Counted from the stretch's first letter, positions 20,911 through 44,400 are shown. The stretch: 64,000 nucleotides of DNA from a virus (IMGVR_UViG_3300006204_000001), one strand, 5' to 3'. Notes: generated from the letters alone by a model not told the origin. Numbers and translations are program-made.

Positions 20911-23520
20911 TTATCCTTCATATCCAGCTGGATATTTAATATCGATGATTGGTCTATCTGCTTTAGGTATTGGAGTTGCCATTATTTTTTTATAACATGC
21001 AAGAAGTTGTGTACGTATAGCTTCCAATTGGGGTTTTGTATGAGGTACTACATATTTATTACTTCCAACTTCTAATAATTCTATATACCATTCCACTATC
21101 TCTAATTTACCAAGACAATATGATGCAATCATCATTTTATCATTAGCATCTTTGATAGCTTCTGTCTCTATAGAAATATATGCTACTAAGTCTGATGGAA
21201 TCTTTTTTAATTTTTTAACAAAGAATTTTTCATACATTGCTTTTGTTTCTTTGTCTGCATTCATCATACCTTCATGATCAATATTCTCTGATATAAATTT
21301 AGATTCACTATCTTTGATTTTATCATTAAATTTATTATGATAATAATCATCAATAGCTTCTGATAAATATGATAATTCTCTCATATTATCAGAATCATCA
21401 CATGCTTCTCTTAAAGCTTTAACCATTTCTTTTACATCATCTACAATCTTTTTCTTTTCATTTTCAGGAGATGCATATTTAGAGTAAATACCTCTAATGA
21501 ATCTATTAATTGTATTAATATCCTCTTGTGATATTTTAAATGTATCCTTATTATCCATTTTTACATCATCGAATACAAATAATAACTTCATAGGATAAAT
21601 TACTAAACCTGATAATTTAGTTGTAGATACTAAATGTTTTAGATTATGATTCATTTTCATAATTTCACTAGTTAAGTGTTTAGCATATTTTTCTATTTTA
21701 GAATCATAATATTGAATAGCAGCTTTAAAGAAATTAAATGCATCATCAGGATTTTTCATTGTATGAAATATTCTAGGTGACATTTTAATTTTTATTTCTG
21801 GTATTCTATGTAAAAATGCATTAATTGGTTCTCTACCATCTACAAATCTAGCTATAAAATCTTGACTCATAGTAGGTATCTTAAATTCAAGAGTATTATA
21901 TGACTGATATGAATTCAATGTAATAGTAAACTTTTTAAATCCATTAGCCCATTTAGGTAACAGATTTTTTGTGATAATATTAGCATATATATTAGCCGTA
22001 TATTGACTCATCTTATATTTATTATCTTTAGTAGATGTCTTATTGATAATATCCTGTGATAACGTACGTAAAGTAGCTTTAGCTTGTTTCTCAGTCATGT
22101 CTGTATTATATTCTTTCTTATAATCAGGATTGGACTCAGGATCAACTGATTCTGTTATTTTATTGATATTATCACTAATAACGATCATATCTGCATGTTC
22201 ATATATATCATTTAATGATTCCCTAAATGATTCATAAAAATCATTTAAATTAAAATCAGATGTTGTAATTCCATTTAACATAGCTATCATATTATTCATT
22301 TTAGCATTTTCATAATATTCAGGATTTCTCTTTTTATCTTTCTTAGATGGATGATTATATACAATATCACCATTAGCTGCATCTCTTGAATTAATATCAT
22401 CCATTTTAGCCCCTCGGGCATATTTTAAATGTTCTATACCACTGATCATATCACTTGTTTTATCAACTACTTCACCTTCAAAATCAGTATAGCGAAGTTT
22501 ACCTTTAGGAAGTTTAGTTGTTTTAAATGATGAATTGTCATCAATTTCTCCAACTTTAACTACAGGGAATTCATCCTTTGAAACATTTTTTTCTATATAT
22601 GATTTATCTGATTTCGTCAATTCTAAATATTTAAATGAAGATCTAGCAGGTAAATAAAATAAACCTATAACTCTTGATTCTTTTAATCTTTCACCAGTTT
22701 TTCTATCTATGATAGCAAGAACTTTTTGTCCATGTGATGCATGATCAGGATCACCTTTTTTGTTTATAGTCTTTTTCACTTTATCTGTAGTTTCTTTAGA
22801 TGTTCTAAGTTCAATATTTTTTTCAGACTTTTTATGTCCATACTCTTTATTTTTATATGCACCACCAGCCATATCTATTTTGGCATCATCTAATGAATAT
22901 ACTATTTTGATTGCATGACCTGTATCATAATCAAAACCAAGTCTAAAATCATATTTTAATTTACTATGAGATTTTTCCAATAAATATTCTAATTCATCAA
23001 TATCATATGATTCATATAATTCTTTTGCTTCTTTATATATCCTTTCACGTCTATCAAAGAATAAATCCCATATTTCTTTAGATTCTTTATTTGATAAATA
23101 AATATCAAAACCTTCATATGATTCCCCATTACTAGATTCATTATCTAGTTTAACATCATATTTTTTTCTAATAATTCCTCTTACATTTTGGAATAAATCA
23201 TTTATTAATTCACTTAATAACGTTTCTATCCAACCATATTGATGATTAGTAAAATGACCTGTTACTTGAATCATACATTCATATTTTTTTCCATTCTTAT
23301 ATACTCTAACAGATCCACATTCAGTATTTCCTCCAGGTTTAGTACAAAAATCATCAATACATGACATAGCCCAACTAGAAGATTTTAAATCTGAATAAGA
23401 ATCTTTATCTATTAAACGATACATCTCATCTTTAATAATCTTATTTATATCAATAATCTTCTTTTGAATATTATCAGGTAAGTCTTTAAGATATCCATCT
23501 TTAACTTTACTTCTTTTCAT
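20911..23520 (-). CDS. Modular putative head protein carrying copy A of the repeated SHxxLKYxFR module
   Basis: 869 aa, immediately downstream of the capsid gene; many hydrophobic-x-E-S/A motifs; module at 22309..22977. Confidence 0.65.
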   Translation of the reverse strand: MKRSKVKDGYLKDLPDNIQKKIIDINKIIKDEMYRLIDKDSYSDLKSSSWAMSCIDDFCTKPGGNTECGSVRVYKNGKKYECMIQVTGHFTNHQYGWIETLLSELINDLFQNVRGIIRKKYDVKLDNESSNGESYEGFDIYLSNKESKEIWDLFFDRRERIYKEAKELYESYDIDELEYLLEKSHSKLKYDFRLGFDYDTGHAIKIVYSLDDAKIDMAGGAYKNKEYGHKKSEKNIELRTSKETTDKVKKTINKKGDPDHASHGQKVLAIIDRKTGERLKESRVIGLFYLPARSSFKYLELTKSDKSYIEKNVSKDEFPVVKVGEIDDNSSFKTTKLPKGKLRYTDFEGEVVDKTSDMISGIEHLKYARGAKMDDINSRDAANGDIVYNHPSKKDKKRNPEYYENAKMNNMIAMLNGITTSDFNLNDFYESFRESLNDIYEHADMIVISDNINKITESVDPESNPDYKKEYNTDMTEKQAKATLRTLSQDIINKTSTKDNKYKMSQYTANIYANIITKNLLPKWANGFKKFTITLNSYQSYNTLEFKIPTMSQDFIARFVDGREPINAFLHRIPEIKIKMSPRIFHTMKNPDDAFNFFKAAIQYYDSKIEKYAKHLTSEIMKMNHNLKHLVSTTKLSGLVIYPMKLLFVFDDVKMDNKDTFKISQEDINTINRFIRGIYSKYASPENEKKKIVDDVKEMVKALREACDDSDNMRELSYLSEAIDDYYHNKFNDKIKDSESKFISENIDHEGMMNADKETKAMYEKFFVKKLKKIPSDLVAYISIETEAIKDANDKMMIASYCLGKLEIVEWYIELLEVGSNKYVVPHTKPQLEAIRTQLLACYKKIMATPIPKADRPIIDIKYPAGYEG
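22305..22360 (-). repeat. 56 bp perfect repeat, copy 1 (inverted relative to 42842..42897)
   Basis: Minus strand reads atataatcatccatctaagaaagataaaaagagaaatcctgaatattatgaaaatg. Confidence 0.95.
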
Positions 23521-23577
23521 TATTATCTACTCCTTTATTATAGTTTATAATTTTTATAGTCTGGTAAATAAATAAGT

Positions 23578-23615
23578 AATATAGTAAGTGAGCTAAATAG
23601 CTCACTTACTATATT
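23578..23615. terminator. Strong terminator after major capsid gene
   Basis: aatatagtaagtgagct/agctcacttactatatt long stem. Confidence 0.85.
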
Positions 23616-23658
23616 TTGAGGATTTTATTATGTCAGTGAAAAAGAATAATACCCAATT

Positions 23659-25497
23659 TTATGCTGCTGCCTTCCAAGGTGCACCTGTAATAGGAGGTCT
23701 AGAAGGAGCATCTCCATATACTTTATCAGAATTAAGAATAATAAGATCAGCCTGAATACCCTGAATACTCATTGTCTTAAATCTTGCTGTTGCAGTTACG
23801 ATATTATATGCACCTGCAGGAGCCTGAGGACTCTGATAAGCTGTCTGAGATTGAGAAGTAAACAGATGATTTGTATACTTCAAATGTCTATATGACACAT
23901 GATCAGGACTTGTAGGATATCCATAAATATGAAGTACAAGCTCTCTGTTATTTGTTTCATCAACTGGATCAATTGTATATGCATCATAAAGATTAGATGC
24001 AACTACTCTAATGTTAGCACCAAGATCAGAAGCAAAACCATATGATCCATTACACTTAATACCTCCAATAGAAGTTCCAGATGACTGCTTCCATTGAATA
24101 TACTCTGTAAGCAACTGTGTAGCCATTGGATTGCCAGTAATTACAAATGAAAGATCATCCAACTTTGTAAGTTCTGTTAACTGATAAATGATGGAACGAA
24201 GTCTAAACTGAATAGCTGAAGCTACATACTTAAACGGATCTCCAGCATAACCTGCAGGAGGCTTAATATCACATGTATAAGTCTGAGCCAATGATTCAAG
24301 TTTATACGTATCAGTTGTAACACCATTAAACTTAGCCTGTTCATCACATAAGAACTTGATAACTGTCATGCACTCTTCCATTTCCTGAGTCTTTGTAATC
24401 TCATCAACCATTCTATTGTAATAGTTGATATCAAGAAGAGCTGCAGCATCATCGATCTGCTCAATTGTGAATGGCATGTTCCAACGAGGACCATCCTCAA
24501 TAGTAAAACGAATAATATCACGTTTCTCTCTTACAGATACACTTCTAAGATTCTTCTCATTGGAAAGATATCCAGAGAATACTACACCAGTAACCTGTCC
24601 AGAAGTAGATGCAATACTTACTGTACCATTCTTGAAGTCTACACGTCCGCCAAGTTCATCTTCAACATGAGTTCCATTATAATCAAAATCAAGATTACCA
24701 TTTACAAATGTACCATTTGTCGAGAACTCAACTGTGATACCATTACCATTCAAAGGAATAGTCTCATCACCAACCTGAACTGCAATAATCTTAAACTGGA
24801 ATGATAACTGATCAAGACCTTTTGTACCATCTGTAAGATTAGTAATAATATCATATTTACTCAATCTTCCATTTACAAAAGGAACAACAACTTCTTTGAT
24901 CTTATGACCCTTAGCTGCATCATAAATCTTTTCCCATGTACCATCAAACATACACTTAGGATATTCATACTCATCGCCAGTATTGTTATCAATAAGATAT
25001 GTTGTTCTAATATGCTTAACGATATTAGGTGTCTTAACAGACTCAACCTCAATAATATCTTTAAGAATAGAACTAAAGAACTGTTTAACGAGTACAGGGA
25101 ATTCAAGTGTAGCAATTGGCAAAAATGCAGTAATAGCTGCAGACTCAGTATAATTCTTAACCTTTGTATCCCAGAAGTTGTTAACCTGATCAATTACATA
25201 CTCAATATGAGGATCATTTTCTGATGTTTGACGATAAGCCTCAAATACAGGTTCCAATAGAGCTTCCTTATATCCATTCATGAATTCTCTATCAGAGATC
25301 ATCTTGGTGATATCTCTCTTAATATCGATTCCTCTTTCTTTATAGCCTTCACAAATTGAACTAAAATGATCATCGAATGACTGTACATTTCCATCTGCAC
25401 TTTTAGCATTAAAAGCAGATGCTGAAGTTACAGGATTTTCTTTTCTTGATGCTTCACTTGCTGATTCATAAAACCAGCTAACCTTATTTGTAGTCAT
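23659..25497 (-). CDS. Major capsid protein precursor
   Basis: 612 aa; N-terminal propeptide-like region ending YTE/SAAITAFLP...FPVL; own upstream late motif and strong terminator; resembles phiKZ/AR9-type MCP. Confidence 0.75.
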   Translation of the reverse strand: MTTNKVSWFYESASEASRKENPVTSASAFNAKSADGNVQSFDDHFSSICEGYKERGIDIKRDITKMISDREFMNGYKEALLEPVFEAYRQTSENDPHIEYVIDQVNNFWDTKVKNYTESAAITAFLPIATLEFPVLVKQFFSSILKDIIEVESVKTPNIVKHIRTTYLIDNNTGDEYEYPKCMFDGTWEKIYDAAKGHKIKEVVVPFVNGRLSKYDIITNLTDGTKGLDQLSFQFKIIAVQVGDETIPLNGNGITVEFSTNGTFVNGNLDFDYNGTHVEDELGGRVDFKNGTVSIASTSGQVTGVVFSGYLSNEKNLRSVSVREKRDIIRFTIEDGPRWNMPFTIEQIDDAAALLDINYYNRMVDEITKTQEMEECMTVIKFLCDEQAKFNGVTTDTYKLESLAQTYTCDIKPPAGYAGDPFKYVASAIQFRLRSIIYQLTELTKLDDLSFVITGNPMATQLLTEYIQWKQSSGTSIGGIKCNGSYGFASDLGANIRVVASNLYDAYTIDPVDETNNRELVLHIYGYPTSPDHVSYRHLKYTNHLFTSQSQTAYQSPQAPAGAYNIVTATARFKTMSIQGIQADLIILNSDKVYGDAPSRPPITGAPWKAAA

Positions 25498-25569
25498 GAT
25501 TAAATCTCTCCTTTTCTAAAATAATTTTTTTGGTCCACAATGTTGTGAATTTTTAACATATGGTTATTA

Positions 25570-25581
25570 TATTACTATGTT
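25570..25581 (-). promoter_or_regulatory. Putative late promoter AACA-N6-TA
   Basis: AACATAGTAATA upstream of capsid gene. Confidence 0.5.
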
Positions 25582-26187
25582 TTATTGCTGTTCTTTAATA
25601 CCTTTATGGATGTTTTTATCAAACATTATATTAGCTAACTGCAATAAATTCAAACACTTGTTAAAAAATAGTAGATTATCTGAGAAATCAGTATTAGTGA
25701 ATTTATGTTTTAAATATAAATGAATATTTTCATCTAATCTTTCTAAGATTTTTAATGTATCTATCATCTTATCCGATAATACAAAAAGTATATCACTATT
25801 CTTCTTAACAGCTGTTAATTGTGTTTGGACTTTGTTTAATAGTGATAAAAATCTTTGATATAATTTTTGATTTATTATAGCAGAAATCTTTTCACTTAAC
25901 TGCATATTAGTTTGATTATTAGTAAGATCTTCTAAACCATCTGTATCAAATTCTTCATTAGATTCATCATCTATATTTTCAAAAGATTCATCGTCATTAA
26001 AATCCATATCAGGTGGTGCTTGATCACTCATATCATCAGAATTGCTATCTCCACCAGTTGGCATATCTGGTGGAGAAGAATCTTCTATATTTTGGTTATC
26101 ACTACTTATATCAGGAGGATCATTTTCAGCTTCTTTATAATATTTATTATTGTACATTTGAAGCCAATCCTCAAATCCAACTCCCAT
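25582..26187 (-). CDS. Putative head-associated protein with acidic disordered N-half
   Basis: 201 aa; YYKEA motif followed by D/E/S/P-rich tract; adjacent to MCP. Confidence 0.6.
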   Translation of the reverse strand: MGVGFEDWLQMYNNKYYKEAENDPPDISSDNQNIEDSSPPDMPTGGDSNSDDMSDQAPPDMDFNDDESFENIDDESNEEFDTDGLEDLTNNQTNMQLSEKISAIINQKLYQRFLSLLNKVQTQLTAVKKNSDILFVLSDKMIDTLKILERLDENIHLYLKHKFTNTDFSDNLLFFNKCLNLLQLANIMFDKNIHKGIKEQQ

Positions 26188-26206
26188 TTATAATCTCCTT
26201 TCTATA

Positions 26207-29086
26207 TTAAATTATTTGACCTTTTCGCCATGCTTTATTTGATGCTGGTCCAGATATTCTATAAAGTTTTTGACTTATTTGATTCTTTAAACGTGTTAAT
26301 TGAGATACTGCTTTAATATCACCTTTTCCTTCAGCATGAGCAATCTTCTTTTCTATGATCTCAATTTCAGTTTTAATTTCCCCGATCATTTCATGTCTAA
26401 GTTGTTCCATTTGATTTTTATTCTTTGATTTTCTTGCTATAGAAAATCCTAAAAAGAATGGATTGAGTAGTAAACCAGCTTTCAAATATGCTCCTGTTTT
26501 AATACACCAATTAACTGCACTTAAAAGATTACTTCTTGCTGCAGGATCAGCTATCTTTTCTTTTATTTTTGTCTCATCTGTGTCTTTCCAATCCTGGATT
26601 GTTTTCATAACCCAACCTTGTGTTTTTCTAATTGGTTTTATAGCTGCTCTACCAGCATTTTGTACATTTTGAACTGTTCTTTTTGCAGATTGTTGAGCTT
26701 TAGTAGTAGCACGATCAATATCAGTTAAAGCATCTTTTACAGGATGATCAGATTCAGGTTTATTATCATCTGCATCTCCAACTTTCTCAGTTACATAATT
26801 CTTCCTAAATCTATCAAAAAAACCTTCTGTAAATGGTTGATTTGGTAATATATTCATTTTATATGGTATTACAATAGATTCATTATGTTCTTTAGATGAA
26901 TGATCGTCTTTAATGTTTTTATCAGTAGAATTATCAATATTATGTACTGAATGGTTATCATGTCTGCTATTATTGATATTATGGACAGAATGATTGTCAT
27001 GCTTACTATTATCATTGTCTCTATTAAAAGAATTAGTATTCTTATTCATAGAATTATTGTATGTATAATAGTAATAATTATTAGTAGAAGAGTGATCCTC
27101 TTTATCAGAAGAAGATACTCCTAATTCATCTGATACATCATCATAGTGATCATTTTCATCTTTGTTTGCAGATGGTCTACTAAAATCTTCTAAAGATTTA
27201 TTTTCATTATCTGTATCATCATTCTTTTTATCAGGGCTATCAATTTCTCCATAGCTTAAATCATGATTACCTCCGAGATATGTAGGAGCTTTACCTGTAT
27301 ATTTATCAGTCGTATTTGATAATCTATATGATTCATTAATATTATCATCATTTATAGGATCTGCTGATTTTACTAATGTACCATCCTCATTCAATAAACC
27401 ATCAAATTCTTCATATAAAGAATATACTTCATCTTGTAACTTAAATGCTTCTTCTGTTGATTCAGCACATACAATCTGATATTCTTTTAATTCAATAAGA
27501 TCTTTTATATTGTCTATATCTTCTTCTGTATATTCTAAGAATCCTTCTGTATTACCTGTAATCATTGATTCTCTAAATATAGACATATTATTATCCTGCA
27601 TTATTTTTACATGAGCTGATAATGAATTTGATTCTATAATTTGAAAATTCTTGTTATCTAACAAATTAGAATCATATTTGCAACATTCAACTATTAATTG
27701 AGATACATGAGGATCATTATAAATCCTACTAAAGTATTCTAAAACTAAATTAATAGTATTATTACCTAATTGATTTGCAGTAATAATAATATCAGGTATA
27801 GCTACTTCTTCATATTTTTCTGTTAAACCTACTAGAAAAGTTCTACCTTGTTTAGAATTATCATTCAATGAATAATAATCTTCAATATATTCTTCCGCAG
27901 ATTCTTTCAACGAATGACGAGGATCTTTACGAGAAGCTCTTCCTCTTATAGTTACACCTTTTCCTTGCAATTTCTTTTTGAGAACTTTGATTTTATCATT
28001 ACATTCTTTTATTTTATTTTCATATTTTTTAATCTGTTGCTTAGTTTCTTCAATAATTCTCAAATGAGATTCACTATGATTATCATATTTTAATAAATCA
28101 TTAAGGTTATTTTTACATCTTTCAATATTGAATTCTGCACGTTCGATCTCACCCTCATAGAACTTTATATCACCACTAATAGCATAATCTTTAGGTTTCT
28201 CTCTTTTATTTTGAATTTGTTCACCACGTCCATCTCCATTATTTTCTTTTTTCGATATATCTTTTCGTATATCATATGTTATAGAATCATTTAATATATC
28301 ACGGGTTTCTTCATTTTTATGACGATAATTATCATATTTATTTTTTCTCATTGATGTTGATTTAAATGTCGGAACATTTTCTATATCACCAACTTTAATA
28401 TGAAATATATCTGAATCATTATATCCAAATATACCTGTAACATCTGCTTCTTGTAATCGTTTATTAGTTATAACATCAATTATAGCTAATACTTTTTGAC
28501 CAGATGATTTATGGTCAGTATTACCTTTACTACGTATTCTACTTAATTTTTCTTCTTTTGATAACCCTTTAAGTTTTTTATAAGATGTATGATGTGCAAA
28601 ACTGGGATCTTCATCTAATATCATATTATCTAATGAATATACAATTTTCAATGGATGATCTGTTTCTACATCTGTGACCATTCTAAAATCATATTTCAAC
28701 TTACCATGTGATTTTTCCATGAATGATCCATTTGTTATAATTTCATACATATTAAAACATTCTTTGAATGATCTCTTATATTTCTCCAATTCTTCTAAAT
28801 GTTTCCTATAATTAGAAGGATCTTTCTTTTGTGATTCACATTTTTTAATACAATTTTCAAAACATGAAATAACATCATCATATACTGCAACAGATACACC
28901 ATATTTTTCTACAAAGGTTTCCCATGTTTCTAATCCTATACTAGATTCAATGATATATTTTAGATTAGAAATATAACTTGCAGGATTGGTGTTTAATATT
29001 TCATTGATACATTCTGAATATGTATCGATGTCAGATTGTCTTCCACTACTTTTAGCAATGGAGTATAACGATTTAATATCTTTCAT
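26207..29086 (-). CDS. Modular putative head protein carrying copy B of the repeated module
   Basis: 959 aa; module starts at SFME-KSHGKLKYDFR (28717); many hydrophobic-x-E motifs; helical C-terminus. Confidence 0.65.
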   Translation of the reverse strand: MKDIKSLYSIAKSSGRQSDIDTYSECINEILNTNPASYISNLKYIIESSIGLETWETFVEKYGVSVAVYDDVISCFENCIKKCESQKKDPSNYRKHLEELEKYKRSFKECFNMYEIITNGSFMEKSHGKLKYDFRMVTDVETDHPLKIVYSLDNMILDEDPSFAHHTSYKKLKGLSKEEKLSRIRSKGNTDHKSSGQKVLAIIDVITNKRLQEADVTGIFGYNDSDIFHIKVGDIENVPTFKSTSMRKNKYDNYRHKNEETRDILNDSITYDIRKDISKKENNGDGRGEQIQNKREKPKDYAISGDIKFYEGEIERAEFNIERCKNNLNDLLKYDNHSESHLRIIEETKQQIKKYENKIKECNDKIKVLKKKLQGKGVTIRGRASRKDPRHSLKESAEEYIEDYYSLNDNSKQGRTFLVGLTEKYEEVAIPDIIITANQLGNNTINLVLEYFSRIYNDPHVSQLIVECCKYDSNLLDNKNFQIIESNSLSAHVKIMQDNNMSIFRESMITGNTEGFLEYTEEDIDNIKDLIELKEYQIVCAESTEEAFKLQDEVYSLYEEFDGLLNEDGTLVKSADPINDDNINESYRLSNTTDKYTGKAPTYLGGNHDLSYGEIDSPDKKNDDTDNENKSLEDFSRPSANKDENDHYDDVSDELGVSSSDKEDHSSTNNYYYYTYNNSMNKNTNSFNRDNDNSKHDNHSVHNINNSRHDNHSVHNIDNSTDKNIKDDHSSKEHNESIVIPYKMNILPNQPFTEGFFDRFRKNYVTEKVGDADDNKPESDHPVKDALTDIDRATTKAQQSAKRTVQNVQNAGRAAIKPIRKTQGWVMKTIQDWKDTDETKIKEKIADPAARSNLLSAVNWCIKTGAYLKAGLLLNPFFLGFSIARKSKNKNQMEQLRHEMIGEIKTEIEIIEKKIAHAEGKGDIKAVSQLTRLKNQISQKLYRISGPASNKAWRKGQII
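26928..27010 (-). repeat. Two tandem 13-codon repeats (NS[KR]HDNHSVHNI[ND])
   Basis: Seen in translation of 26207..29086. Confidence 0.8.
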
Positions 29087-29155
29087 AATTTACATCAACC
29101 TCATTTCTTAAAGATTTAAAATTTTAATATTTGGTGAAGGAGATATATAAAGAAT

Positions 29156-30895
29156 ATGGCGACACAAGTGAAAAAGAAAAATACTATAACTAAAATCCAA
29201 GATGTTAAAATGGATAAAATTAAAGTATTCTATAGGAAAAGCATTCTTAAATCTGTATTAAAAATATTAGTAATGGAGCATGGTGGATTTAGAACATTTA
29301 AATCTGTTAAAAATATAAATAAACTATTTACCCATCTAGATTTATCAAAATATAATAATAATGAAGAATTAAAATCATATATATGGTGTATATCATTTAT
29401 ATCAAAACATTGGTTAGATGGGATAACTAATGTAGATCTTATATTAGAGGGAGCTAAACGACAACCAGAATATGATAATATTAAAGATAATATTATCAAT
29501 CAATGCATGAATGATAAAAATGAAATCACATATCCAGAAGCAAAAGGAATATTTGATTTAATAGGTGAAGCATTACAATATGGATTTATAGGTTCATTAA
29601 AAGATGAATACATAAATCTATTAGAAGATATTAATATGGAAAGCCCAAATGCATTCAAAGAAGTAGTAAATCGATTATTCTTAATATCAAAATCATTGAT
29701 TGATATTCAATATGGTACTAATATGGTATCAGATAAAGTAACGTTTAATACAGCAGATATGAGTTCTATAAGAAATGCTATTAGAATGACTCAAGAATCT
29801 TTATCATCTACAAATAATATGTTTAAAATGGGAATTCGTAGATGGAATACTTTATTATCTCCTGCACTAATGAATGGAAGATTTTATTTATATGCTGGCC
29901 CAGTTGGTGCTGGCAAATCTATTATATTACAGAAAACTGCAACAGATATAAGAAAATATAATCCAGACTATCAACCTAAAACACCAGGTATGAAACCATG
30001 TGTATTATATATTACTATGGAAAATTTCTTTACTGAAGTAATTGAAAGATTATGGAACATGGAATTTGATGAATCAATTACAAATTATAGTGAAGAAGAA
30101 GCAATGAATATGATATGTGATACTTTAGGCATTACACAAGTATTGAAAGAAGATGTTAAAGTTAAAGATGTTGATACTGATAAACCTCTAGAAGCCCAAT
30201 TAATAAAAAAGCCAAAAAATAAATCTAATATTGAAATTGTAATGAAATATTTTTCTTATAGAGAAATTAGTACAGATGATCTTCATACTATTATTCATGA
30301 TCTTAGAGAAGATAATATGGAAGTATGTGCATTAGTATTAGATTATGTAAAAAGAATTGCTCCTGCTACTCCAACACCGGATAATGAAAAACTAGAATTA
30401 AATCATATAGGTAATGAGCTAAAAGCCATAGCTGTAATATATGATATACCTGTAATAAGTGCTCATCAATTAAATAGAGTTGCAACATCGATTATTGATA
30501 ATGCAGAAAGATCAGGTAAAACAGATTCATTGAAATTAGTAGGTAAAGAGCATATCGGAACAGCATATGAATTGGCAGAAGTATCTGATTGGTTAGGTTT
30601 ATGTAAAATATCATATAAACCTGGAACTAATCAAAGATATTTAGAATTAAATGTCGTTAAAAGAAGACGTATTGATCAAGCAGAAGCAGAGTTTGCTAAG
30701 TATACTTATTTAGCACATCCATTTGCTCCTAACAATGGAATGAGATTATTAGATGATATTAATCTTGATAAAGTATTATCATTACAATCATTAATAAGTG
30801 ATATAAATACAGTAGGAATGGAAAAAACAAATGCAGTACCAAGATTAAGAACGATGGAACAAAGTGAATTTATTGAATTAGATGAAGACTATTAA
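29156..30895 (+). CDS. dnaB: DnaB-like (SF4) replicative helicase
   Basis: GPVGAGKS Walker A, ITMEN, VLDYV Walker B, SAHQLNR. Confidence 0.9.
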   Translation: MATQVKKKNTITKIQDVKMDKIKVFYRKSILKSVLKILVMEHGGFRTFKSVKNINKLFTHLDLSKYNNNEELKSYIWCISFISKHWLDGITNVDLILEGAKRQPEYDNIKDNIINQCMNDKNEITYPEAKGIFDLIGEALQYGFIGSLKDEYINLLEDINMESPNAFKEVVNRLFLISKSLIDIQYGTNMVSDKVTFNTADMSSIRNAIRMTQESLSSTNNMFKMGIRRWNTLLSPALMNGRFYLYAGPVGAGKSIILQKTATDIRKYNPDYQPKTPGMKPCVLYITMENFFTEVIERLWNMEFDESITNYSEEEAMNMICDTLGITQVLKEDVKVKDVDTDKPLEAQLIKKPKNKSNIEIVMKYFSYREISTDDLHTIIHDLREDNMEVCALVLDYVKRIAPATPTPDNEKLELNHIGNELKAIAVIYDIPVISAHQLNRVATSIIDNAERSGKTDSLKLVGKEHIGTAYELAEVSDWLGLCKISYKPGTNQRYLELNVVKRRRIDQAEAEFAKYTYLAHPFAPNNGMRLLDDINLDKVLSLQSLISDINTVGMEKTNAVPRLRTMEQSEFIELDEDY

Positions 30896-31458: not shown

Positions 31459-31463
31459 AAATC

Positions 31464-34430: not shown

Positions 34431-34452
34431 TGAATGGGAAAGGAAAAATACT

Positions 34453-34797
34453 ATGGCTATGGATTTTACAGAATTAGGAAAAATGATAAAATATCAAAGA
34501 AGATCTTTAGGTTTAACTCAGGAAGAATTAGCTGAAGAAGTTGGAATGACAAAAGCAGTGTTAGGACAAGTTGAAAGAGGAGAAAGATCTATAACAGTTG
34601 AAAGACTTGTTTTATTGGCTGATCGTTTTGGTGTAACTGTTGATTTTCTTCTCAATGGATACAAATTTAATGAACATACTCAAGTCATGAAAGATTTTGT
34701 TGGAATCATGCGTGACCAGCCATTAGAACGAAAACAAATGGCAATTGATGTATTACGTACGATATTTTCTCATCTAAATAAAGAAAATAATAAATAA
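34453..34797 (+). CDS. XRE-family helix-turn-helix regulator
   Basis: RRSLGLTQEELAEEVG...VERGER...LADRFGVTVDFLL. Confidence 0.92.
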   Translation: MAMDFTELGKMIKYQRRSLGLTQEELAEEVGMTKAVLGQVERGERSITVERLVLLADRFGVTVDFLLNGYKFNEHTQVMKDFVGIMRDQPLERKQMAIDVLRTIFSHLNKENNK

Positions 34798-34824
34798 AAA
34801 ATATTATTAAAAAGGAGATATAAG

Positions 34825-35517: not shown

Positions 35518-35549
35518 TACATTCCGGCATAAATAAAAAAATAAAATAA

Positions 35550-35572
35550 AGAGGGGTCTATAAGACCCCTCC
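35550..35572. terminator. Terminator between convergent genes
   Basis: agaggggtct/agacccctct hairpin. Confidence 0.75.
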
Positions 35573-35585
35573 TCCATCTTTATTT

Positions 35586-37058
35586 TTAATCGATATCTAT
35601 AACTTTAAATGATTTTGATTTTCTTTTTAATACATCTGCTCTAGCATTAGCCCATGCTCTTAATTGTTTTACATCTGCATCTACAATATCCCACATATAA
35701 GTATCTTTTTCATCATCTCTTCTTCTTAAACGTCCACTAACTTGATCTGCAAGTATCCAACTTTTAAATTGTTGCACTACTATTAATTTAGCTAATCCTT
35801 TCCAGTCAAATCCAGTACCACATGATGCTACTGTGGATATTAATATATCAGATTCACTTTTATATTTTTCATTCTCCTGTTTAGTATTTTTAGAATGATA
35901 TGTTCCAATCTTTTTATCAGGAAACATTTTTTCCGTATAATCACGAATAACATTTACAGATGTTATAGTAGGAGCTAATATTAAAGTTTTACCATATGTT
36001 ACTTCTTTTTCTGCCATCTTAATTATTTTTAATACCATAGTGAGAAATTTTGTCATAGTACCATCTGATGGTATAGTCAATGCAGTATATGCTGGTATAC
36101 TAATACCATATCGCATCCATTTGCCAGCTCTTTCAGAATATCTCATATTTTCAGATACTGCTCTAATTTCTTCTTTAGATAATCCAGAATGCCCCCACAT
36201 CATTCTTACATGCATATGTGGTTTCATTCCATATACATTTCCTGGTTTTGGATTAAACAATGTAGGTTTCTTTTGTTGTTCTTTAAATAAACTGAGATCA
36301 CCAAACATTTTCTGATATAGGGAATTTTCTTCTTCTCCAGACCTACCAAATGTACCTGTAAGATATAAATTATATCTTATATTTGAATTTGATTCAACTT
36401 GTACTATATTATGAAACCACATTTGTACTTCATCTATTACTTTTAAACCAAATTTATTTAATTTCATTATTTTCTCTAAATCATATTTTTTATTTAATGA
36501 TGCTAATGATGCTTGTGAAATAATAACGAAATCTTCTTTAACATTAAAAAAATCTTGTGGACCACTTACATTTTTTATTCTATTAGGATCTACTTTAAAC
36601 ATATTTACCAATGTTTCATACCATTGTTTTTTAATTCCACTAGTAGGAGCAATAAATAATGTTCTTACAGATACTGCACATGCACAAAAACAGGCAACTA
36701 CGGTCTTTCCAGAACCAGTTCCTAGGATCGCCCCGATTTTCTGGGACTTATTAAAGCCATCTAAAATATATTTTATACAATCAATTTGTAATTGATTACG
36801 TGGTTTAATATCGTGCTCTATTTTAGGGGTTATAGCTGCATAATCCCAATATTCTTTTGTATGATCTTCAATTGGTATTTTTGGAAATGCTTGTCTTATA
36901 GTCTCTTCCATACCTGGTGCAAAAGCTATAAAATTATCATCTGGATCATTATACCAGAATACTCTATCATCTGTACCAACTAATTTATCCAATTTTAATT
37001 TTTCAAATTCTGTATATTCTGTAAATATTAAACGTGTTCTTTCCTTTCTTATTCTCAT
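35586..37058 (-). CDS. SF2 DNA helicase (UvsW-like)
   Basis: PRNQLQ Q-motif, GTGSGKT, IDEVQ, LTGT, GTGFD, QVSGRLRR. Confidence 0.9.
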   Translation of the reverse strand: MRIRKERTRLIFTEYTEFEKLKLDKLVGTDDRVFWYNDPDDNFIAFAPGMEETIRQAFPKIPIEDHTKEYWDYAAITPKIEHDIKPRNQLQIDCIKYILDGFNKSQKIGAILGTGSGKTVVACFCACAVSVRTLFIAPTSGIKKQWYETLVNMFKVDPNRIKNVSGPQDFFNVKEDFVIISQASLASLNKKYDLEKIMKLNKFGLKVIDEVQMWFHNIVQVESNSNIRYNLYLTGTFGRSGEEENSLYQKMFGDLSLFKEQQKKPTLFNPKPGNVYGMKPHMHVRMMWGHSGLSKEEIRAVSENMRYSERAGKWMRYGISIPAYTALTIPSDGTMTKFLTMVLKIIKMAEKEVTYGKTLILAPTITSVNVIRDYTEKMFPDKKIGTYHSKNTKQENEKYKSESDILISTVASCGTGFDWKGLAKLIVVQQFKSWILADQVSGRLRRRDDEKDTYMWDIVDADVKQLRAWANARADVLKRKSKSFKVIDID

Positions 37059-37130
37059 ATCATCAATCCACCTTATATAAGTTTTTCGTTATTCAATCGT
37101 TGAATATATAGTCAGATAAAAAGATAAACA

Positions 37131-37155
37131 CTGGAGTAGCATTTCGCTACTCCAG
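37131..37155 (-). terminator. GC-rich hairpin with no long ORF ending at it
   Basis: ctggagtagc/gctactccag; T-rich tail on the minus strand. Confidence 0.6.
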
Positions 37156-37357
37156 CATTCATCTTTGCCAAAAATAAAAAGCCCCAAAATCATAAAAGAA
37201 GGAAGATGCCAAAAACCACTTTTATGAAGGTAATATACAATCATTTGTTTTTTATTTTCCTAAGAGATTTAATTATACTGAATCAAGACATATTAATTTT
37301 AATTTATTAATCCAATATTCACAAATGATTATTTCTATGTAAAGGTAATAATAAAAT

Positions 37358-37368
37358 TATATATTCTA
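37358..37368 (+). promoter_or_regulatory. Putative early promoter
   Basis: TATATATTCTA upstream of accessory operon. Confidence 0.6.
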
Positions 37369-37398
37369 ATATAGAATAATATGAAAGGAGAAAATTAT

Positions 37399-37887
37399 AT
37401 GTATGATTTAAATTATTATTCAGAAAATATTGTTTGTAGAGGTCACGGTATAAGTATTTGTGTATGTAAAGAAAAATTACACAAATTAATTGTACCACCA
37501 TATTTCATTGTGTTTAATAATGAGGATATTGAAAAAGCAGATAAATCTATCAGATTAAAATTTAAGAGTAATAAATCTGTTAAAGTAAATTGTCCATTAG
37601 GAAAACAATGGTGGGAAATGAAACCAAATGAAATACTTGAACTAAAGAAATTACTTAGAGATACTAATGAATATTCAGAATATTCTAATTGGGACACTAT
37701 ATGTTTTATATGGAATAAAGTATATAAAACTATAAATTACAAAATGAAAATTACTGAATGGAAAAGGGATCCTCATTATATCGATAAAGCAAGTGCATAT
37801 GCGTTTTGGGATTTTACAATTAGCAATAATTTAGATATTCCAATTGTATGGGATACTACTGATTATAGGAAGGAGAATAAAATATGA
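37399..37887 (+). CDS. Hypothetical protein
   Basis: ATG 37399 after AAAGGAG. Confidence 0.7.
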   Translation: MYDLNYYSENIVCRGHGISICVCKEKLHKLIVPPYFIVFNNEDIEKADKSIRLKFKSNKSVKVNCPLGKQWWEMKPNEILELKKLLRDTNEYSEYSNWDTICFIWNKVYKTINYKMKITEWKRDPHYIDKASAYAFWDFTISNNLDIPIVWDTTDYRKENKI

Positions 37888-38204
37888 TTTATCATGGGAA
37901 TTTGATTGAATTTGAAAGGACAGAAAAAATACCAGCAAATGAAATGAGTAATTTCAACTATTATTACGAAAAAAGATTAGTATTAGCAGATTTATTTTCA
38001 TTAACAGGTGGAAAAGTTGAATATGATATATATTTCGATGATACAGGATATGAAAATATTTATGTTGGTAGAGCAGAAGACTTAATGACTACCGCAAATG
38101 GAATAATGAGCGAATATTGTCAATATCCTGTCCATAGTATTGATATCAGTAGAGATGGAAAATTACTTGTTGTTTTATATAATGATTTTGGAGGATGTGA
38201 ATAA
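37884..38204 (+). CDS. Hypothetical protein, paralog of 40498..40812
   Basis: FERTxK...LADLFxLxxGKxEY...YxGR shared. Confidence 0.75.
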   Translation: MIYHGNLIEFERTEKIPANEMSNFNYYYEKRLVLADLFSLTGGKVEYDIYFDDTGYENIYVGRAEDLMTTANGIMSEYCQYPVHSIDISRDGKLLVVLYNDFGGCE

Positions 38205-38206
38205 AT

Positions 38207-38848
38207 ATGTCAGTATTAAATAAGAAAATGTTACCACGTTATGAATATATACGAGATAGTATTATTCAATTATTAACAGAATATCTGAATAAATATCAGT
38301 TGCCATCTATAAAATACACATTCATTGATGAATTTGCTAAAACAGAAGATAGAGAACTTATAGATGAATCAGGATTGTTATTAACTGATAATCCACCAAG
38401 CATGGGAACGATAATATCTGTAGGTCATGATAAGGAAACTAGTATTGTTAAAGAAATGACGTTTTTATTAGTAATACCAAATTCCAATTTATTAGAGACA
38501 TGGATTAATACAGGATTGGATGATATTAAAACCTTATTAATCATGCATACGGTATTAAAACATGAGATTGGGCATATTATTTATAATTGGTCTTTTATGG
38601 GTAATTATATAGACACTATACATGAAAAATTTAAGAAAGATGAGGAAGTTAAAAAGGATTTTTATAAAAAATATAAAATTAATAAAAATACTAGCATTAA
38701 ACAAAGAGCAAGAATAATGATACACTATAATAGATTAGAACCAGAAGAGAAAAATGCTAATGAGTTAATGGGTATAACTGATCAAGATTGGGTTGATTAT
38801 ATAAATGCTATTTATGATACTACATATAAATTAAAGGATTTATTATAA
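38207..38848 (+). CDS. Zincin-like metallopeptidase (HExxH), paralog of 40781..41377
   Basis: LKHEIGHII and downstream EKNAN. Confidence 0.7.
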   Translation: MSVLNKKMLPRYEYIRDSIIQLLTEYLNKYQLPSIKYTFIDEFAKTEDRELIDESGLLLTDNPPSMGTIISVGHDKETSIVKEMTFLLVIPNSNLLETWINTGLDDIKTLLIMHTVLKHEIGHIIYNWSFMGNYIDTIHEKFKKDEEVKKDFYKKYKINKNTSIKQRARIMIHYNRLEPEEKNANELMGITDQDWVDYINAIYDTTYKLKDLL

Positions 38849-38865
38849 AAGGAGGATATAATAAT

Positions 38866-39255
38866 ATGAGAAAACAATGGCATGTTGGAGAATTTTGTGG
38901 ATTTGAATATGATGACGGTAAATGGGTAAAAGCAGAAATTATTAGTGTTAAGAAACCTAGTAGCGTAGGTGAAGAATATTCTGTTACTATAAAATATGAT
39001 GAACCTAGGACTGTTATAACTTCATGTGGAAGTCATATGTTACATGTATTAGGTAAACAAAGCATAAAAATACAAGAGTTACAGAATATAGAGAAATATA
39101 ATAAATTAGCCAAATTCGTATTTCCTAAATCTAATGGTGAATATTCTAAGCTAGATGATTTAGAAAAAGCATGTATTAGAAAAATATATGATAGACTTAT
39201 ACTCATTATATCAGAAGAGAAACTTTTAATTATGAAAGAGAAAGGGGTATTATAA
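38866..39255 (+). CDS. Hypothetical protein with SH3/Tudor-like N-terminus
   Basis: WHVGEFCG...DGKWVKAEIISV...YSVTIKYD pattern. Confidence 0.6.
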   Translation: MRKQWHVGEFCGFEYDDGKWVKAEIISVKKPSSVGEEYSVTIKYDEPRTVITSCGSHMLHVLGKQSIKIQELQNIEKYNKLAKFVFPKSNGEYSKLDDLEKACIRKIYDRLILIISEEKLLIMKEKGVL

Positions 39256-40017
39256 TGGAAGATATATTAGGTAAATTAAATCCTAATAAAAAAAATAGTG
39301 GCACGCAATTATGGCACTATTAGTCATCTTAAAGGTTCAAAGATGATTAATTCAAGAGATAAGTTAATTGGCATTAACCAAGAAATTATGTTAACTGAAA
39401 AAATTAGGAATAGAGGTGATTTAATAATTATAACTGAAAAAATTGATGGATGTAATGTTGGTGTATTTAGATGCAATAATAAATTATATCCACTAGTAAG
39501 AAAAGGTTATGATGTTAGAACTAATCCGGTTAGCTGGATTAAATCATTTGCTAATTATGTAGAAGATAGAGCAGAACAGTTTTTTGATTTATTACAAGAT
39601 CAAGAAAGAGTTTGCGGTGAATGGATGATTCATCAACATACATTGAAATATAAACTCAAAGGAGATCCTTTTATTGCATTTGATATCATTAGAGGAGATC
39701 ATAGAGAACGATATATTGACATGTGTAAAAGACTTGATAAAGTCAATATAGAACATACTGGGTTAGTTCATATTGGTTCTCCTATGCATCCTAATTTGGC
39801 AATGTTATTATTAGGAAAGGGTTTCCATGGGGTTGAAGATGATCAACCAGAAGGAATAGTTTACAGATATGAATCAGCGAAGTATGGGTTTGAATTTTCT
39901 GCTAAATTCGTTGATAATTATAAATTAGGCATTAATGAATATTTTAAAGTAGATGATCCATATTCATGGAATGAAGTTAAGGGTAGATACAAAAAATATT
40001 GTATCTTGAATATATAA
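39255..40017 (+). CDS. ATP-dependent RNA ligase (nucleotidyltransferase); likely start 39255 with a +1 frameshift in an A8 run, or GTG start at 39298
   Basis: TEKIDGCN motif I, CGEW, FIAFDI, PEGIV, AKFV. Confidence 0.85.
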
Positions 40018-40030
40018 GGAGCATAAATAT

Positions 40031-40426
40031 ATGATTAATGTTATTCCAGAAGAAATATTAAAGCGTTCTAAGAGTGCTTTAGATGATGATTGTTTTAAAA
40101 TTTATAATAAATCACATCAAATTTATATTTATGACTTATTAGAACGAATAGAACCATATATCGATATTCAAATTATCAGTTTAAAATTATATACAGATGG
40201 TAATATGATCATAGCTGAAAATACTAAAGAAATAATATATAAAGGGAGAGGTATTTTCTTATTGAATGAAAGTAAAAGGATTGACTTAACTTTAGAACGA
40301 AATTCATTAGTAAAGTTACCAGTTTCATTAATTTCATTTAACGAAAATATATTGTCTGTATTTGTTGATAAAGAATATATTGATAAATTAGATGAAAGTG
40401 GATTTGCTAATATTATTGATTCATAA
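40031..40426 (+). CDS. Hypothetical protein, possibly a distant paralog of 37884/40498
   Basis: IYDLL...IYKGR...PVSLIS...ILSVFV pattern. Confidence 0.6.
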   Translation: MINVIPEEILKRSKSALDDDCFKIYNKSHQIYIYDLLERIEPYIDIQIISLKLYTDGNMIIAENTKEIIYKGRGIFLLNESKRIDLTLERNSLVKLPVSLISFNENILSVFVDKEYIDKLDESGFANIIDS

Positions 40427-40435
40427 TTATACAAT

Positions 40436-40469
40436 AATGATTCACCGCTTTAATATGCGGTGAATCATT
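40436..40469 (+). terminator. Intrinsic terminator
   Basis: aatgattcaccgc/gcggtgaatcatt followed by a T-run. Confidence 0.8.
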
Positions 40470-40497
40470 TATTTTTTATAAATTTAGGAGGTAAATA

Positions 40498-40812
40498 ATG
40501 GAAAATAAATATATGTTCGAGAGAACAGATAAATCAATAAATGATTATCCTGAAAAGGTAATTATTTTAGCTGATTTATTTCATCTTGGTGATGGTAAAA
40601 TTGAATATATAATAATGGAATCAGAATCTGAAGAAGAATTGTATAATGGACGACAGGAGTATTTAGAATGGACAACCGAAGGTTGTGCTTCATCCTTATG
40701 CAGTAGAGTTATTGATTATATTGACATAGGAAGCAATAAAATACTTGTATATTTGAAACCTGAAGAGAGGAATACGGATAATGAACAATTCAAAGATGTT
40801 AAAAATGACTAA
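40498..40812 (+). CDS. Hypothetical protein, paralog of 37884..38204
   Basis: Shared motifs; AGGAGG RBS. Confidence 0.75.
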   Translation: MENKYMFERTDKSINDYPEKVIILADLFHLGDGKIEYIIMESESEEELYNGRQEYLEWTTEGCASSLCSRVIDYIDIGSNKILVYLKPEERNTDNEQFKDVKND

Positions 40813-41377
40813 TAAATTGATACATGATTCTCTCGACTATTGGTATAGTACCTGTAGTAAATATAATATTACTGAAGTAAGTCTTAACATATATGGAAAT
40901 GCATGTGTAGATGATAAAGTACAATACGTTAGGAATCATATATCTGATACCAGAGCAGTAACAGTATCAATAGCTCATACGGATGATAATCTAAATATAG
41001 ATCCCAATGATAGAATCATAAAATCTGTAACATCAGAAGTGTACATCTCATTACAAGAATTGTATGCTATATTAATAGATACTGAACTTGATTTCAATAA
41101 AGCATTAAAAACTATGGAATTTACATTACGTCATGAAATCGGGCATATTATAGTCAAAAATAAATTTGTTGATAAACCGATAAAAGAATGGGATAAGGTG
41201 GATTATGAAGAATCTATCGGATATAATGGAATGCCTACATTAAGAAAAAATGCTAGTAAGCAAGCAAGATTGGAATGGCTATTACAATACAACAGTTTGC
41301 CATCTGAAAAAGCAGCTAACGATGCAGTTGATATCACAGAAGAAGACATTATTGAGGATTTTAACAGATTAAGTTAG
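40781..41377 (+). CDS. Zincin-like metallopeptidase (HExxH), paralog of 38207..38848
   Basis: LRHEIGHII...KNASKQAR...YNSLPSEKAAN. Confidence 0.7.
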   Translation: MNNSKMLKMTNKLIHDSLDYWYSTCSKYNITEVSLNIYGNACVDDKVQYVRNHISDTRAVTVSIAHTDDNLNIDPNDRIIKSVTSEVYISLQELYAILIDTELDFNKALKTMEFTLRHEIGHIIVKNKFVDKPIKEWDKVDYEESIGYNGMPTLRKNASKQARLEWLLQYNSLPSEKAANDAVDITEEDIIEDFNRLS

Positions 41378-41383
41378 TTAAAC

Positions 41384-41414
41384 ATATTCACTCCATATTA
41401 AGTGGAGTGAATAT
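41384..41414 (+). terminator. Intrinsic terminator
   Basis: atattcactcca/tggagtgaatat followed by a T-run. Confidence 0.8.
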
Positions 41415-41441
41415 ATTTTTTTGTTGAAAGGAGATATATTA

Positions 41442-44400
41442 ATGAGTGAAATAAAAATTGATAATTCAATTAAAAATGCTATTACAAAAGGAAACTGGAA
41501 GGATCCAGGAGCAAAACTATATGATGATATTTTAAAAAATACAAATTGGAAGGATCTTTTAAAAGAAGCATATCTTGTTGCTCCAGTTAATGATATAACT
41601 AATGATCCAAGAGTACGTACGAGATTAAATAGTTCTGGATGTAAATATCCTCATCATCATATAAAGGATGGTAAACTTGTTGTATCAATTTCTGGATTGC
41701 GTTCTGCATATATATGTGCAAGAAATCAGGGTTATTTCAATAATGATTCAAATAATAGACCTGAATATAGTAGATCAGTAGTTACTCATTTGAATAGACA
41801 TTGTAAAGAGTTAGGAATTGAACCTATATGGCATCACGGTGAACTTTATTTTCAGGATATTAAATCAAAGAAATTTGTTGAATATACTGATATAAATGAA
41901 TTTAATGAAGATTCAGATGAAAAGTTATATAGAGTTACATTTAATGACATTGGTATTTATGAAGCTATGAGACAACATATGTCATTAGATAAATGGAGAG
42001 ATTTTTTAAAATCTGATAATGCTACATGGTTACCAAAACCAGATAAATATCCAGATGGATATACTTCATATTTCACTAAAGAAGGAATTGATAAATTTAA
42101 TGAATTAGTATATCCTATATCATGTGGAATTCTTGGAGATAATATTAAATATGAAGAATTTGATCAGGATGATATAGGAGATATTGTTTATAAAGATAAT
42201 TATCAAATAATAGCCGAATATAAAGAATTTAACGAAGCATCACATGGAAAATTAAAATATGATTTTAGAAAAGGTTATGATTGGAATTCTGGTCATGGAA
42301 TAAAGATTATATATTCATTAGATAATATTGAAATCACTAATATAGGAAAAGGATTTTCAACTGATGCTGATAAAGATAAAAATATAAAAGATATAGAAAA
42401 AAATATTAAAAATAAAGGTAATATGGATCATGTATCTAAAGGTCAAAAAGTATTAGCTATAATAGATAGAGTAACTGGAGAAAGACTTAATGAATGTGAT
42501 TATATTGGTCCATTTGCTCCAGCTATATCAAATCGTAATCTAGATTTATCTGATGATATAGATGATCTGCATGATTATTATAATTCTAAAGGTCCAGATT
42601 TTGTAAAGCGATATATTAATCATATTAAGGTAGGAGAAAATGATAATACTAGCGTATATAAATCTACTCATTGGTTCAAAAATGATATGAAGGAAGTAAA
42701 AGATAGATATGGATATATGGATAAAGTAGATAATACTATTGTAAGGGGAACTAAAGCAGAAGCTCTTAAATATGGAAGAGGAGCTAAAATGAATGATATT
42801 GATAATAATGATGCTTTAGGTATGGTAGGATCATTTCCAAAATATAATCATCCATCTAAGAAAGATAAAAAGAGAAATCCTGAATATTATGAAAATGAAG
42901 AATTTACAGAAAAATCGCATTCTAATTTGAAATATGCTTTTAGAATGGCTGTAAATCCTCATAATGGCCATTTTATAAAAATCGTATTTGATTTAGATTC
43001 AGATAAAGTATTACAAATAGGAGATCATACTCAACAATCTGGAAGAAATAAAGAAAAAGATGAAGAAACAAGAAAGAATATAAGAAAAAATGGATCTAAT
43101 GATTTTTCTTCTATTGGACTAGTTAAAGGTATTCAAGATTTAGATACTAAAGAGCAACTTAAATCAGTAGATACTCTTGGTGTTATTGGAGCTAGTAATC
43201 AAACTAGGTTTAGTGTTCCAGAAGAATTAAGAGATAAGCGTTTAGGAGATGAGCAATATAATATGTTTTCATATCCATTAAAGGATAGAGAAAAAATTAT
43301 TAAAACATTAAATCTTGATAATGCTAAAGATATAATAAAATTTACAGTTGGAGAAGTTGAAAAGGTTCCAAGTTATAAAGCTACATTATTATCTAAATCA
43401 ATATCTGGTGTATATCATAATCAGTTTAATCCGAAAGGAAGAGGAGATCAGAGTAAAAGTAAAAGTTATGATCAAAGTGTATATGCAGGATTGAAATCTT
43501 TAAAGTCAAGATACAAAAAAGTTCATGATGTATTAAAGGATAATGATTATTATGAAGACGATTTTGATTATATTGAGAAATTATTAAATAAATTAGAAGA
43601 AGATGTTGATAAACATAGTGATGAAAAATATGGTCAAAGTACAATGCATCCAAGATATAGCAGAAGATATAGTAACATAGACAGTTCTATTAGCGAACTT
43701 GAAGTTGAAATAAAAAATATGAAAAAGAAAAAAGATAGTAAGGTAGATAAACAAATCAATGAAAATTTCAATATTATGTACACTATAATTCAGGAACAAA
43801 CAGGAGCTAATTTATTTGATGATAACTTTGAAATATTTGAAGAGTCTGATAAAATAGATATAGTAAAGGAAATTAATTACTGTATGGATATGTTAAATAA
43901 AACAGGAGATGAGAAATGGTTAAATAAATTTAAATTAGCTCAAAAGAAATTGATAAATGAATCATATGCAGAATCATCTGATATCAAAAAAAACGATGAA
44001 TTTGTTCCAATATTTGGAATATTAAAGAAAACATCTTTAGATGATAAAAGAAATGATGGTTCTGAAAAAGATGAATATGATAAGGAAATGAGTAAATTTC
44101 AAAAACAAATTAGTACTCTTACATTCGGAGATAATTATGCTCATGCATTAATATCTTTTGATGATAAGTTTAATCATCTATATTCTTTTGGTGATGAAGG
44201 AATTGAGGATGACAGTATATATTTAGATAGTTGGATGGCTACGGATTCTATCTATATCTGTGTAATGTTTGTTACAAAAGATGAAAGAGATAAGATGAAA
44301 ATATATGTGGATGATATACTTGCTCATCCAGAAAAAACATCATATGCATTTTCTAATTTATTAAAAGCATATATAAGTAAACCTGCGAAGATAGATAAAC

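Follow-up and report, generated by a model that had tools for sequence, protein, structure and literature searches.

Four copies of one domain around the capsid gene

We have analyzed a 64,000-nt stretch of DNA (hereafter, the window) from the virus IMGVR_UViG_3300006204_000001, corresponding to bases 16512–80511 of a virus record that is complete, has terminal repeats and spans 289,059 bp, and consider here an unnamed domain, the module, found in four copies within three large proteins, the carriers (Table 1). Judging by sequence, the source is an AR9/phiKZ-like jumbo phage from a clade of uncultured gut phages; the window has a GC content of approximately 27%, and general annotation of the phage also yields the large terminase, tail sheath and helicases. 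The major capsid protein is about 24% identical to capsid proteins of AR9/PBS1-like jumbo phages of Staphylococcus, Listeria and Bacillus. Its gene is flanked by those of carriers 1 and 2, as an earlier reading of the window from the sequence only had described, and the synteny of the carrier and capsid genes is kept in four related genomes (G001–G004).

Table 1. Location of the modules, their carriers and related features (window coordinates unless a genome contig is named)
Feature	Position	Strand	Details
Carrier 1 (P0001)	20911..23520	-	869 aa; N-domain 1-165, module A, variable stretch, P1_C 516-869
P1_C domain of carrier 1	20914-21975	-	Conserved C-domain
Inverted repeat, left arm	22305..22360	.	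56 nt, perfect; encodes copy A tail (YNHPSKKDKKRNPEYYEN)
Module copy A	22309..22977	-	P0001 residues 182-405; E 2.5e-96
Major capsid protein	23659..25497	-	Between carriers 1 and 2; phrog_20655, E 3.5e-26
Carrier 2 (P0002)	26207..29086	-	959 aa; N-segment 1-117, module B, middle segment, N/Y/H-rich low-complexity stretch, C-domain
Module copy B	27902..28717	-	P0002 residues 124-395; E 6e-103; coiled-coil tail
Carrier 3 (P0003)	41421..44717	+	1098 aa as listed; P3_N, cassette P3_N2, modules C and D, P3_C
Module copy C	42234..42893	+	P0003 residues 272-491
Inverted repeat, right arm	42842..42897	.	56 nt, perfect; encodes copy C tail
Module copy D	42909..43763	+	P0003 residues 497-781; E 3e-107
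Polyvalent-type protein adjacent to carrier 3	44740..49197	+	1485 aa; transglutaminase-like cassettes, Pfam PF01841 and PF04473; no module (HMM)
Peptidase_S77 protease (PF03420, T4 gp21 family)	G000:C1:256255-256698		29.9 bits, Pfam cut-off 27

The sequence-only reading had reported four homologous copies, A and B on the minus strand and C and D on the plus strand, and both alignment and a scan of the genome bear this out. A profile hidden Markov model (HMM) built from the four copies matches exactly four places in the whole 289-kb genome (E from 3e-107 to 2.5e-96), and no fifth copy is found anywhere in it with a broader family profile. The adjacent 1485-aa gene was rejected by HMM as the site of a fifth copy; P0134 shares its length merely by chance. 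The quoted start borders (YLLE-K, SFME-K, EFNE-A and EFTE-K) and end borders (EYYE-N, SLKE-S, EYYE-N and QINE-N) are all present in the sequence, the Glu codon ahead of KSH in copy A occupying positions 22975–22977. The copies, approximately 220–280 residues long, align over their full length (MAFFT) with 31–49% identity to copy A and share 31 invariant columns, including E1, S3, H4, L7, K8, Y9, F11, R12, H21, K24 and D30. Copy D is the most divergent, and the hexapeptide NEEFTE parts it from copy C. Once the modules are masked, the three carriers show no BLASTP similarity to each other, so the claim that they are otherwise unalike also holds.

By BLAST of their non-module parts, carriers were sorted into three frames with the layouts P1_N-(module)n-P1_C, P2_N-[module]-P2_mid-[module]-P2_C, and P3_N-cassettes-W_C or P3_C. 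The N- and C-domains of carrier 1 orthologues are 50–68% identical, with zero to three modules between or ahead of them, and P1_C is as conserved as the capsid protein (43–69% identity). The C-domain of carrier 2 begins at VGDADDNKPESDHPVKD; the motif KPESDHP[IV]KD at its start (26207–26839, minus strand) is invariant in six aligned proteins of the second frame, the 200 residues after it forming a conserved domain that has a hydrophobic, membrane-like stretch (GAYLKAGLLLNPFFLGF). Carrier 3, whose P3_N domain is widely shared, likely starts at the ATG at 41442, as both P0136 and P0008 begin at MSEIKID. Besides the module, the cassettes of the third frame include two transglutaminase-like units as well as GNAT acetyltransferases and NUDIX, and in about 170 carriers the module is mixed with transglutaminase-like, GNAT, NUDIX and frame domains in many orders. 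The 1485-aa gene is a member of this frame lacking the module, yet in about 44 carriers elsewhere the module is accompanied by cassettes and the C-terminal domain of this protein. No effector or anti-defence enzyme domains are seen in P0001–P0003 with Pfam, PHROG, NCBIfam and PADLOC, such domains being present only in the neighboring gene and in relatives. One carrier 1 orthologue (L038, G003:C1:196000-199800, 1202 aa) is devoid of the module; its N-terminus, ahead of P1_N, is a cassette of about 380 residues whose HEIGH (HExxH) motif may mark a zincin-like peptidase, such as is typical of the polyvalent proteins considered below. The original description of a module inserted into head proteins is consequently kept with respect to a variable insert and revised in the rest: the module is rather one cassette among several (NUDIX, GNAT, transglutaminase-like, and the HExxH stretch) in the variable central part of three conserved frames.

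A profile search of 1.84 billion proteins has retrieved 130 cluster representatives at E ≤ 1e-3, of which 62 at E ≤ 1e-30, all of them from uncultured phage contigs (up to about 293 kb) and none named. Nearly all are proteins of 700–1900 aa with one to four modules at varying positions, 166 module instances having been counted; in the viral collection the module is present in only seven contigs. Two subtypes are observed, the full type with the signature KYDFR...GH..KIVYSLD, and the second one covering only the first approximately 146 positions, with the signature KYCYR...VAVQFELDP. The inability of the sequence-only reading to assign the module to any family is matched by the database searches. 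Besides the unnamed module itself, the carriers have no match in Pfam, PHROGs, NCBIfam or PADLOC; 26 module sequences compared with Pfam at E ≤ 10 yield no recurrent family; the module is not found by tblastn in 50,697 deposited phage records; among PDB sequences the profile picks up coiled coils alone, exclusively through the tails of copies B and D; and a search of the ESM Atlas with the module gives no usable match.

The AlphaFold model of copy C, built with a 26-sequence alignment, has a mean local confidence (pLDDT) of 78.9 and a predicted template modelling score (pTM) of 0.72, and contains a beta3-alpha-beta3-alpha-beta4-alpha core at residues 8–177 followed by a disordered tail, which in copies B and D is lengthened into a coiled coil. 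The model has no significant structural neighbor; with regard to an alpha-kinase/ATP-grasp-like fold of the core, alpha-kinases are among the top-ranked Foldseek matches to the PDB and come first with VIA-align, in neither case significantly. The modules have isoelectric points (pI) of 8.6–9.3, compared to 5.8–7.8 for the carriers. As modelled, the module is an unnamed cassette domain with a basic alpha/beta core of about 175 residues and a disordered or coiled-coil tail. The polar residues conserved throughout the family (S3, H4, K8, R12, D16, H21, K24, D65, S68, D78, T81, K143, T145 and R182) suggest an enzyme, or a putative phosphate-, nucleotide- or other ligand-binding site.

Variation among relatives and recombination at the module ends

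The number of modules per genome is four in this phage (G000) and in G001, two in G002 (66% complete), and one each in G003 and G004. The clearest case of variation is P0008, which is 98% identical to P0003 but lacks precisely the 225 residues EFNEASH...EYYENE that make up copy C, with the deletion junction in a 9-nt microhomology (AAGAATTTA). Orthologues of carrier 2 have four colinear segments in common, and the module of the window comes after the first of these, that of P0100 and P0070 after the second, and that of P0053 and P0031 after the low-complexity stretch; the orthologue in G001 has no module, and unrelated sequence fills those linkers. Orthologues of carrier 1 have one to three modules, at times ahead of P1_N, and none in G002 and G003, while in G004 P1_C is a separate 395-aa frame, still adjoining the capsid gene and with no module. 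Hence the module is an optional cassette, as had been supposed when it was called mobile: its presence, number and position differ among orthologous carriers and near-identical strains, and it is not fixed in the orthologous carriers.

The tails of copies A and C form a perfect inverted repeat, being identical over 56 nt (54 of 54 nt in the pairwise comparison of the tails), with the remainder of the two copies 65–80% identical. P0144 (949 aa, from a 4.9-kb contig) runs as P0003 through the whole of copy C and from the shared tail onwards as P0001; its halves are 99–100% identical to P0003 and P0001, respectively, and the join lies exactly at the repeat. Inversion of the 20.5 kb between the repeat arms would be expected to give just such a protein, and P0144 could be either a real isomer or an assembly chimera. 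P0146, a strain variant of carrier 1, differs from it only in that 29 residues of the module tail are duplicated in tandem (GDIVYNHPSKKDKKRNPEYYENAK.NNMI, twice). Overall, three rearrangements in near-identical strains break in or at module ends. An intein, self-splicing or homing insert was rejected, as neither modules nor carriers have Hint, splicing or homing-endonuclease matches in Pfam, nor do they show endonuclease or recombinase signatures in Pfam and other family libraries. Since the breaks are located at microhomology or at the identical tail and no nuclease or recombinase signature is seen, ordinary recombination accounts for the mobility of the module. The proposal of a selfish insert that relies on the phage protease in place of self-splicing is not upheld, as no mobility function is found and the rearrangements fit the 9-nt microhomology and the 56-nt identical tail.

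Module borders and the head protease

To characterize the N-terminal border we used 93 module starts defined by the SH..LKY.FR signature. The residue preceding [KARGS]-SH (P1) is Glu in all 93 of them, P3 is always one of F, L, I, Y, M and V, P2 varies, and most P1' residues are K, A or R; by alignment, the border Glu is seen in 147 of 160 modules. The hydrophobic-x-Glu border first noticed in four copies is, therefore, a family-wide conserved [FLIYM]-x-E site. In the AlphaFold model, residues 1–3, including the border Glu, have pLDDT below 50. The first modules of the three carriers begin at residues 124, 182 and 272, and a module with no other domain ahead of it is preceded by a leader of 13–25 residues that ends in the border motif, e.g., MATYVELLDIVLE/ASH and MDINNIMDLDIFEE/KSH, with the predicted cut shown at the slash; proteins with such a leader and an N-terminal module include P0018, P0007, P0049, P0119, P0062 and P0044. 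Many full-type modules close with Y.HPSKKD..(N/H)P..Y, and E-[SN] comes one to three residues further on. Comparable hydrophobic-x-Glu motifs are also found ahead of P1_C (ITE|S, LTE|S, INE|S), and ahead of the acidic linker that precedes W_C (MME|D, FME|D, LIE|E).

The YTE/S junction ascribed earlier to the capsid protein is present there as NYTE-SAAIT, with a candidate maturation site Y-T-E|S after residue 118, where the border of a propeptide is to be expected. The motif Y-[TN]-E|S-A is kept in five relatives, and the part of the protein downstream of it is more conserved than the upstream part. In the relative G004 the capsid gene (L032, G004:C1:71397-73241) contains one in-frame TAA within the match, perhaps through a sequencing error or because the gene is split or holds an intron. 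When the capsid protein alone was used as the query, no related loci were found.

The T4 gp21-like protease invoked in the sequence-only reading has a counterpart in the genome, a Peptidase_S77 match above the cut-off (Table 1), and no HK97-type S78 protease is found there. In T4, internal proteins have ten-residue targeting peptides ending in I-A-E, and gp21 cuts the capsid-targeting sequences of IPI-III and Alt. The homologous protease of SPN3US cleaves after A-x-E and so takes N-terminal propeptides of 111–254 residues off ejection proteins (PMC10052503), a precedent to be set beside the starts of the first modules given above. Taken at the sequence level, the module border is probably a protease cut site, and release of the module as cargo by the head protease is plausible.

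Relation to known systems and possible function

In their organization the carriers resemble polyvalent proteins, described in phages and conjugative elements (Iyer, Burroughs, Anand, de Souza, and Aravind, 2017; PMC5512222), each having a conserved N-terminal frame domain, changeable cassettes and a conserved C-terminal domain. Like polyvalent proteins, which have several (2–15) distinct domains per chain, carriers and their relatives combine different domains in architectures that vary strongly among relatives, are encoded by a phage beside virion or packaging genes (here, two carriers flank the capsid gene), are long chains of shuffled cassettes that include GNAT, NUDIX and papain- or transglutaminase-like peptidases, and have cassettes predicted to be packaged and injected. 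What sets the present system apart is that its most frequent cassette is a domain not described before, that the junction motif is indicative of processing by the prohead protease rather than by an embedded autopeptidase, and that the cassettes are borne by three conserved frames, two of them on either side of the capsid gene.

The second parallel is with the internal proteins of T4 and Alt, with which the system has in common a gp21-family (Peptidase_S77) protease gene, hydrophobic-x-Glu at the predicted mature border, and basic products. The leaders of T4 internal proteins can be likened to the module leaders, being short, acidic or hydrophobic N-terminal segments that end in hydrophobic-x-Glu. 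No sequence or fold similarity to these proteins is seen, however, and the modules are larger (25–32 kDa) and mostly embedded in polyproteins rather than encoded by single small genes. The ejection or inner-body proteins of phiKZ, 201phi2-1 and SPN3US belong to related jumbo phages, are also present in several paralogous copies per genome, and have long N-terminal propeptides removed after x-x-Glu (PMC10052503). Unlike them, the module borders have aromatic or aliphatic P3 and not Ala, Ser or Gly, and the copy number and position of modules are far more fluid. Membership of the carriers in phiKZ_IP (PF12699) was rejected, as they have no match at E ≤ 0.1, and a genome scan yields sub-threshold matches in other genes only. 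Two frames of 412 and 438 aa outside the window (G000:C1:285749-286168 and 155280-155762) have two colinear sub-threshold phiKZ_IP matches each, and may represent the true phiKZ-type internal head proteins of the phage.

Under the reading that we favor, to which as a whole we would assign about an even chance, carriers are three families of large late proteins, polyvalent-like precursors that provide basic cargo released by the head protease, with turnover of the cargo by ordinary recombination. The precursors would be built into the prohead, where the gp21-like protease would cut after Glu at the [FLIYM]-x-E site ahead of every module, and probably also behind many modules, at Y-x(1,2)-E-[SN]. 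The released basic proteins (25–32 kDa, pI about 9) would stay with the DNA, similar to T4 internal proteins, and would likely be ejected into the host. Cassettes would be replaced by recombination at microhomologies and between module copies, rather than by a mobility function of the module. The homology, the family size, the cassette variability, the conservation of the motif and the presence of the protease gene are observed directly; that the modules are packaged, cut out and ejected, and that they have an activity, is what we infer.

Several observations weigh against this scheme. Hydrophobic-x-Glu accounts for 40–45% of all Glu residues in these proteins, so that within the window alone the border motif is not significant, and its significance comes only from family-wide conservation. 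The motif is found within the module core as well, the conserved VGE being one instance, and K-P-E|S before the C-domain of carrier 2 has no hydrophobic P3, and the invariant Glu could be a part of the domain along with S3 and H4. The carriers are putative head proteins given their conserved place beside the capsid gene and the analogies above, the virion location being deduced from synteny only, and the model of P1_C is a helical domain with generic structural matches only. Neither the module nor the carrier frames are found in any cultured relative among the 50,697 phage records searched with tblastn, the four frame domains giving no match except for one unannotated faecal contig for P3_N.

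A part of these observations would be explained if the module were an ordinary, uncleaved domain of large virion or early proteins, h-x-E-[KA]-S-H (h, hydrophobic) being its first structural or catalytic element, and the chains acting intact. We consider this unlikely, yet worth serious attention: S3 and H4 are conserved as strongly as E1, h-x-E is frequent throughout the carriers, and some polyvalent proteins, e.g., the virion RNA polymerase of N4, are packaged unprocessed (PMC5512222). A structural element is, however, difficult to reconcile with a variable P2 between two invariant positions in a low-confidence part of the model, and the same motif closes short N-terminal leaders and precedes unrelated domains and the mature capsid protein. 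Quite unlikely, in our opinion, is that the modules are cut and yet never delivered, being a part of a long N-terminal propeptide or scaffold that aids prohead assembly and is then degraded and expelled. This would agree with the modules of the first frame being upstream of a conserved C-domain, which has its own gene in G004, and with long, multiply cut propeptides being the rule in SPN3US and phiKZ; but an assembly role fits poorly with zero to four copies, with the absence of modules from the first and second frames of complete relatives, and with the indel of copy C between near-identical strains. Moreover, modules share chains with NUDIX and GNAT enzymes, and their conserved polar constellation resembles an active site.

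The invariant Ser-His beside the junction also allows for a self-cleaving module, a polyprotein processing device acting at its own N-terminus, e.g., via an N-O acyl shift at Ser3 aided by His4, and embedded autoprotease domains are typical of polyvalent proteins. This is improbable, as no link to a known autoproteolytic fold or Pfam family is found, the invariant Glu and hydrophobic P3 fit the gp21-family specificity instead, and similar motifs precede non-module domains. Still less probable, to the point of being nearly discarded, is a selfish mobile insert spreading among head genes by its own intein- or homing-like mechanism: presence/absence polymorphism with precise unit borders and several insertion positions would be expected of it, while the absence of endonuclease, Hint or recombinase signatures, the junctions in the 9-nt microhomology and the 56-nt identical tail, and the unrelated cassettes occupying the same linkers all argue against it.

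The favored reading of protease-released, recombining cargo has a more specific form, which we offer as tentative and somewhat doubtful. The module may be an enzyme with a new fold or a DNA-associated effector, loaded in variable dose and excised by the protease, with the conserved DNA ends of modules serving as portable homology that reshuffles cargo among frames, possibly including the 20.5-kb inversion between copies A and C. If correct, this would be a protease-processed, recombination-diversified cargo system, undescribed for phage heads. The findings on the module also suggest that polyvalent effector chains can be processed by the head protease, rather than by an embedded autopeptidase. 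What the heads of jumbo phages contain besides DNA, and how this cargo is chosen and diversified, is little known outside phiKZ, SPN3US and T4; the module offers a defined unnamed family with a sharp predicted processing site, strain-level presence/absence variants and an apparently unmatched fold, and could act as a handle for finding this phage clade in metagenomes.

Two other genes of the window may be mentioned. A 201-aa gene between the capsid gene and carrier 2 (25582–26187, minus strand) has no match in Pfam or PHROGs, and the gene at 6425–8134 on the minus strand encodes an ABC transporter that is full-length, membrane and ATPase domains included (phrog_2392, E 1e-134).

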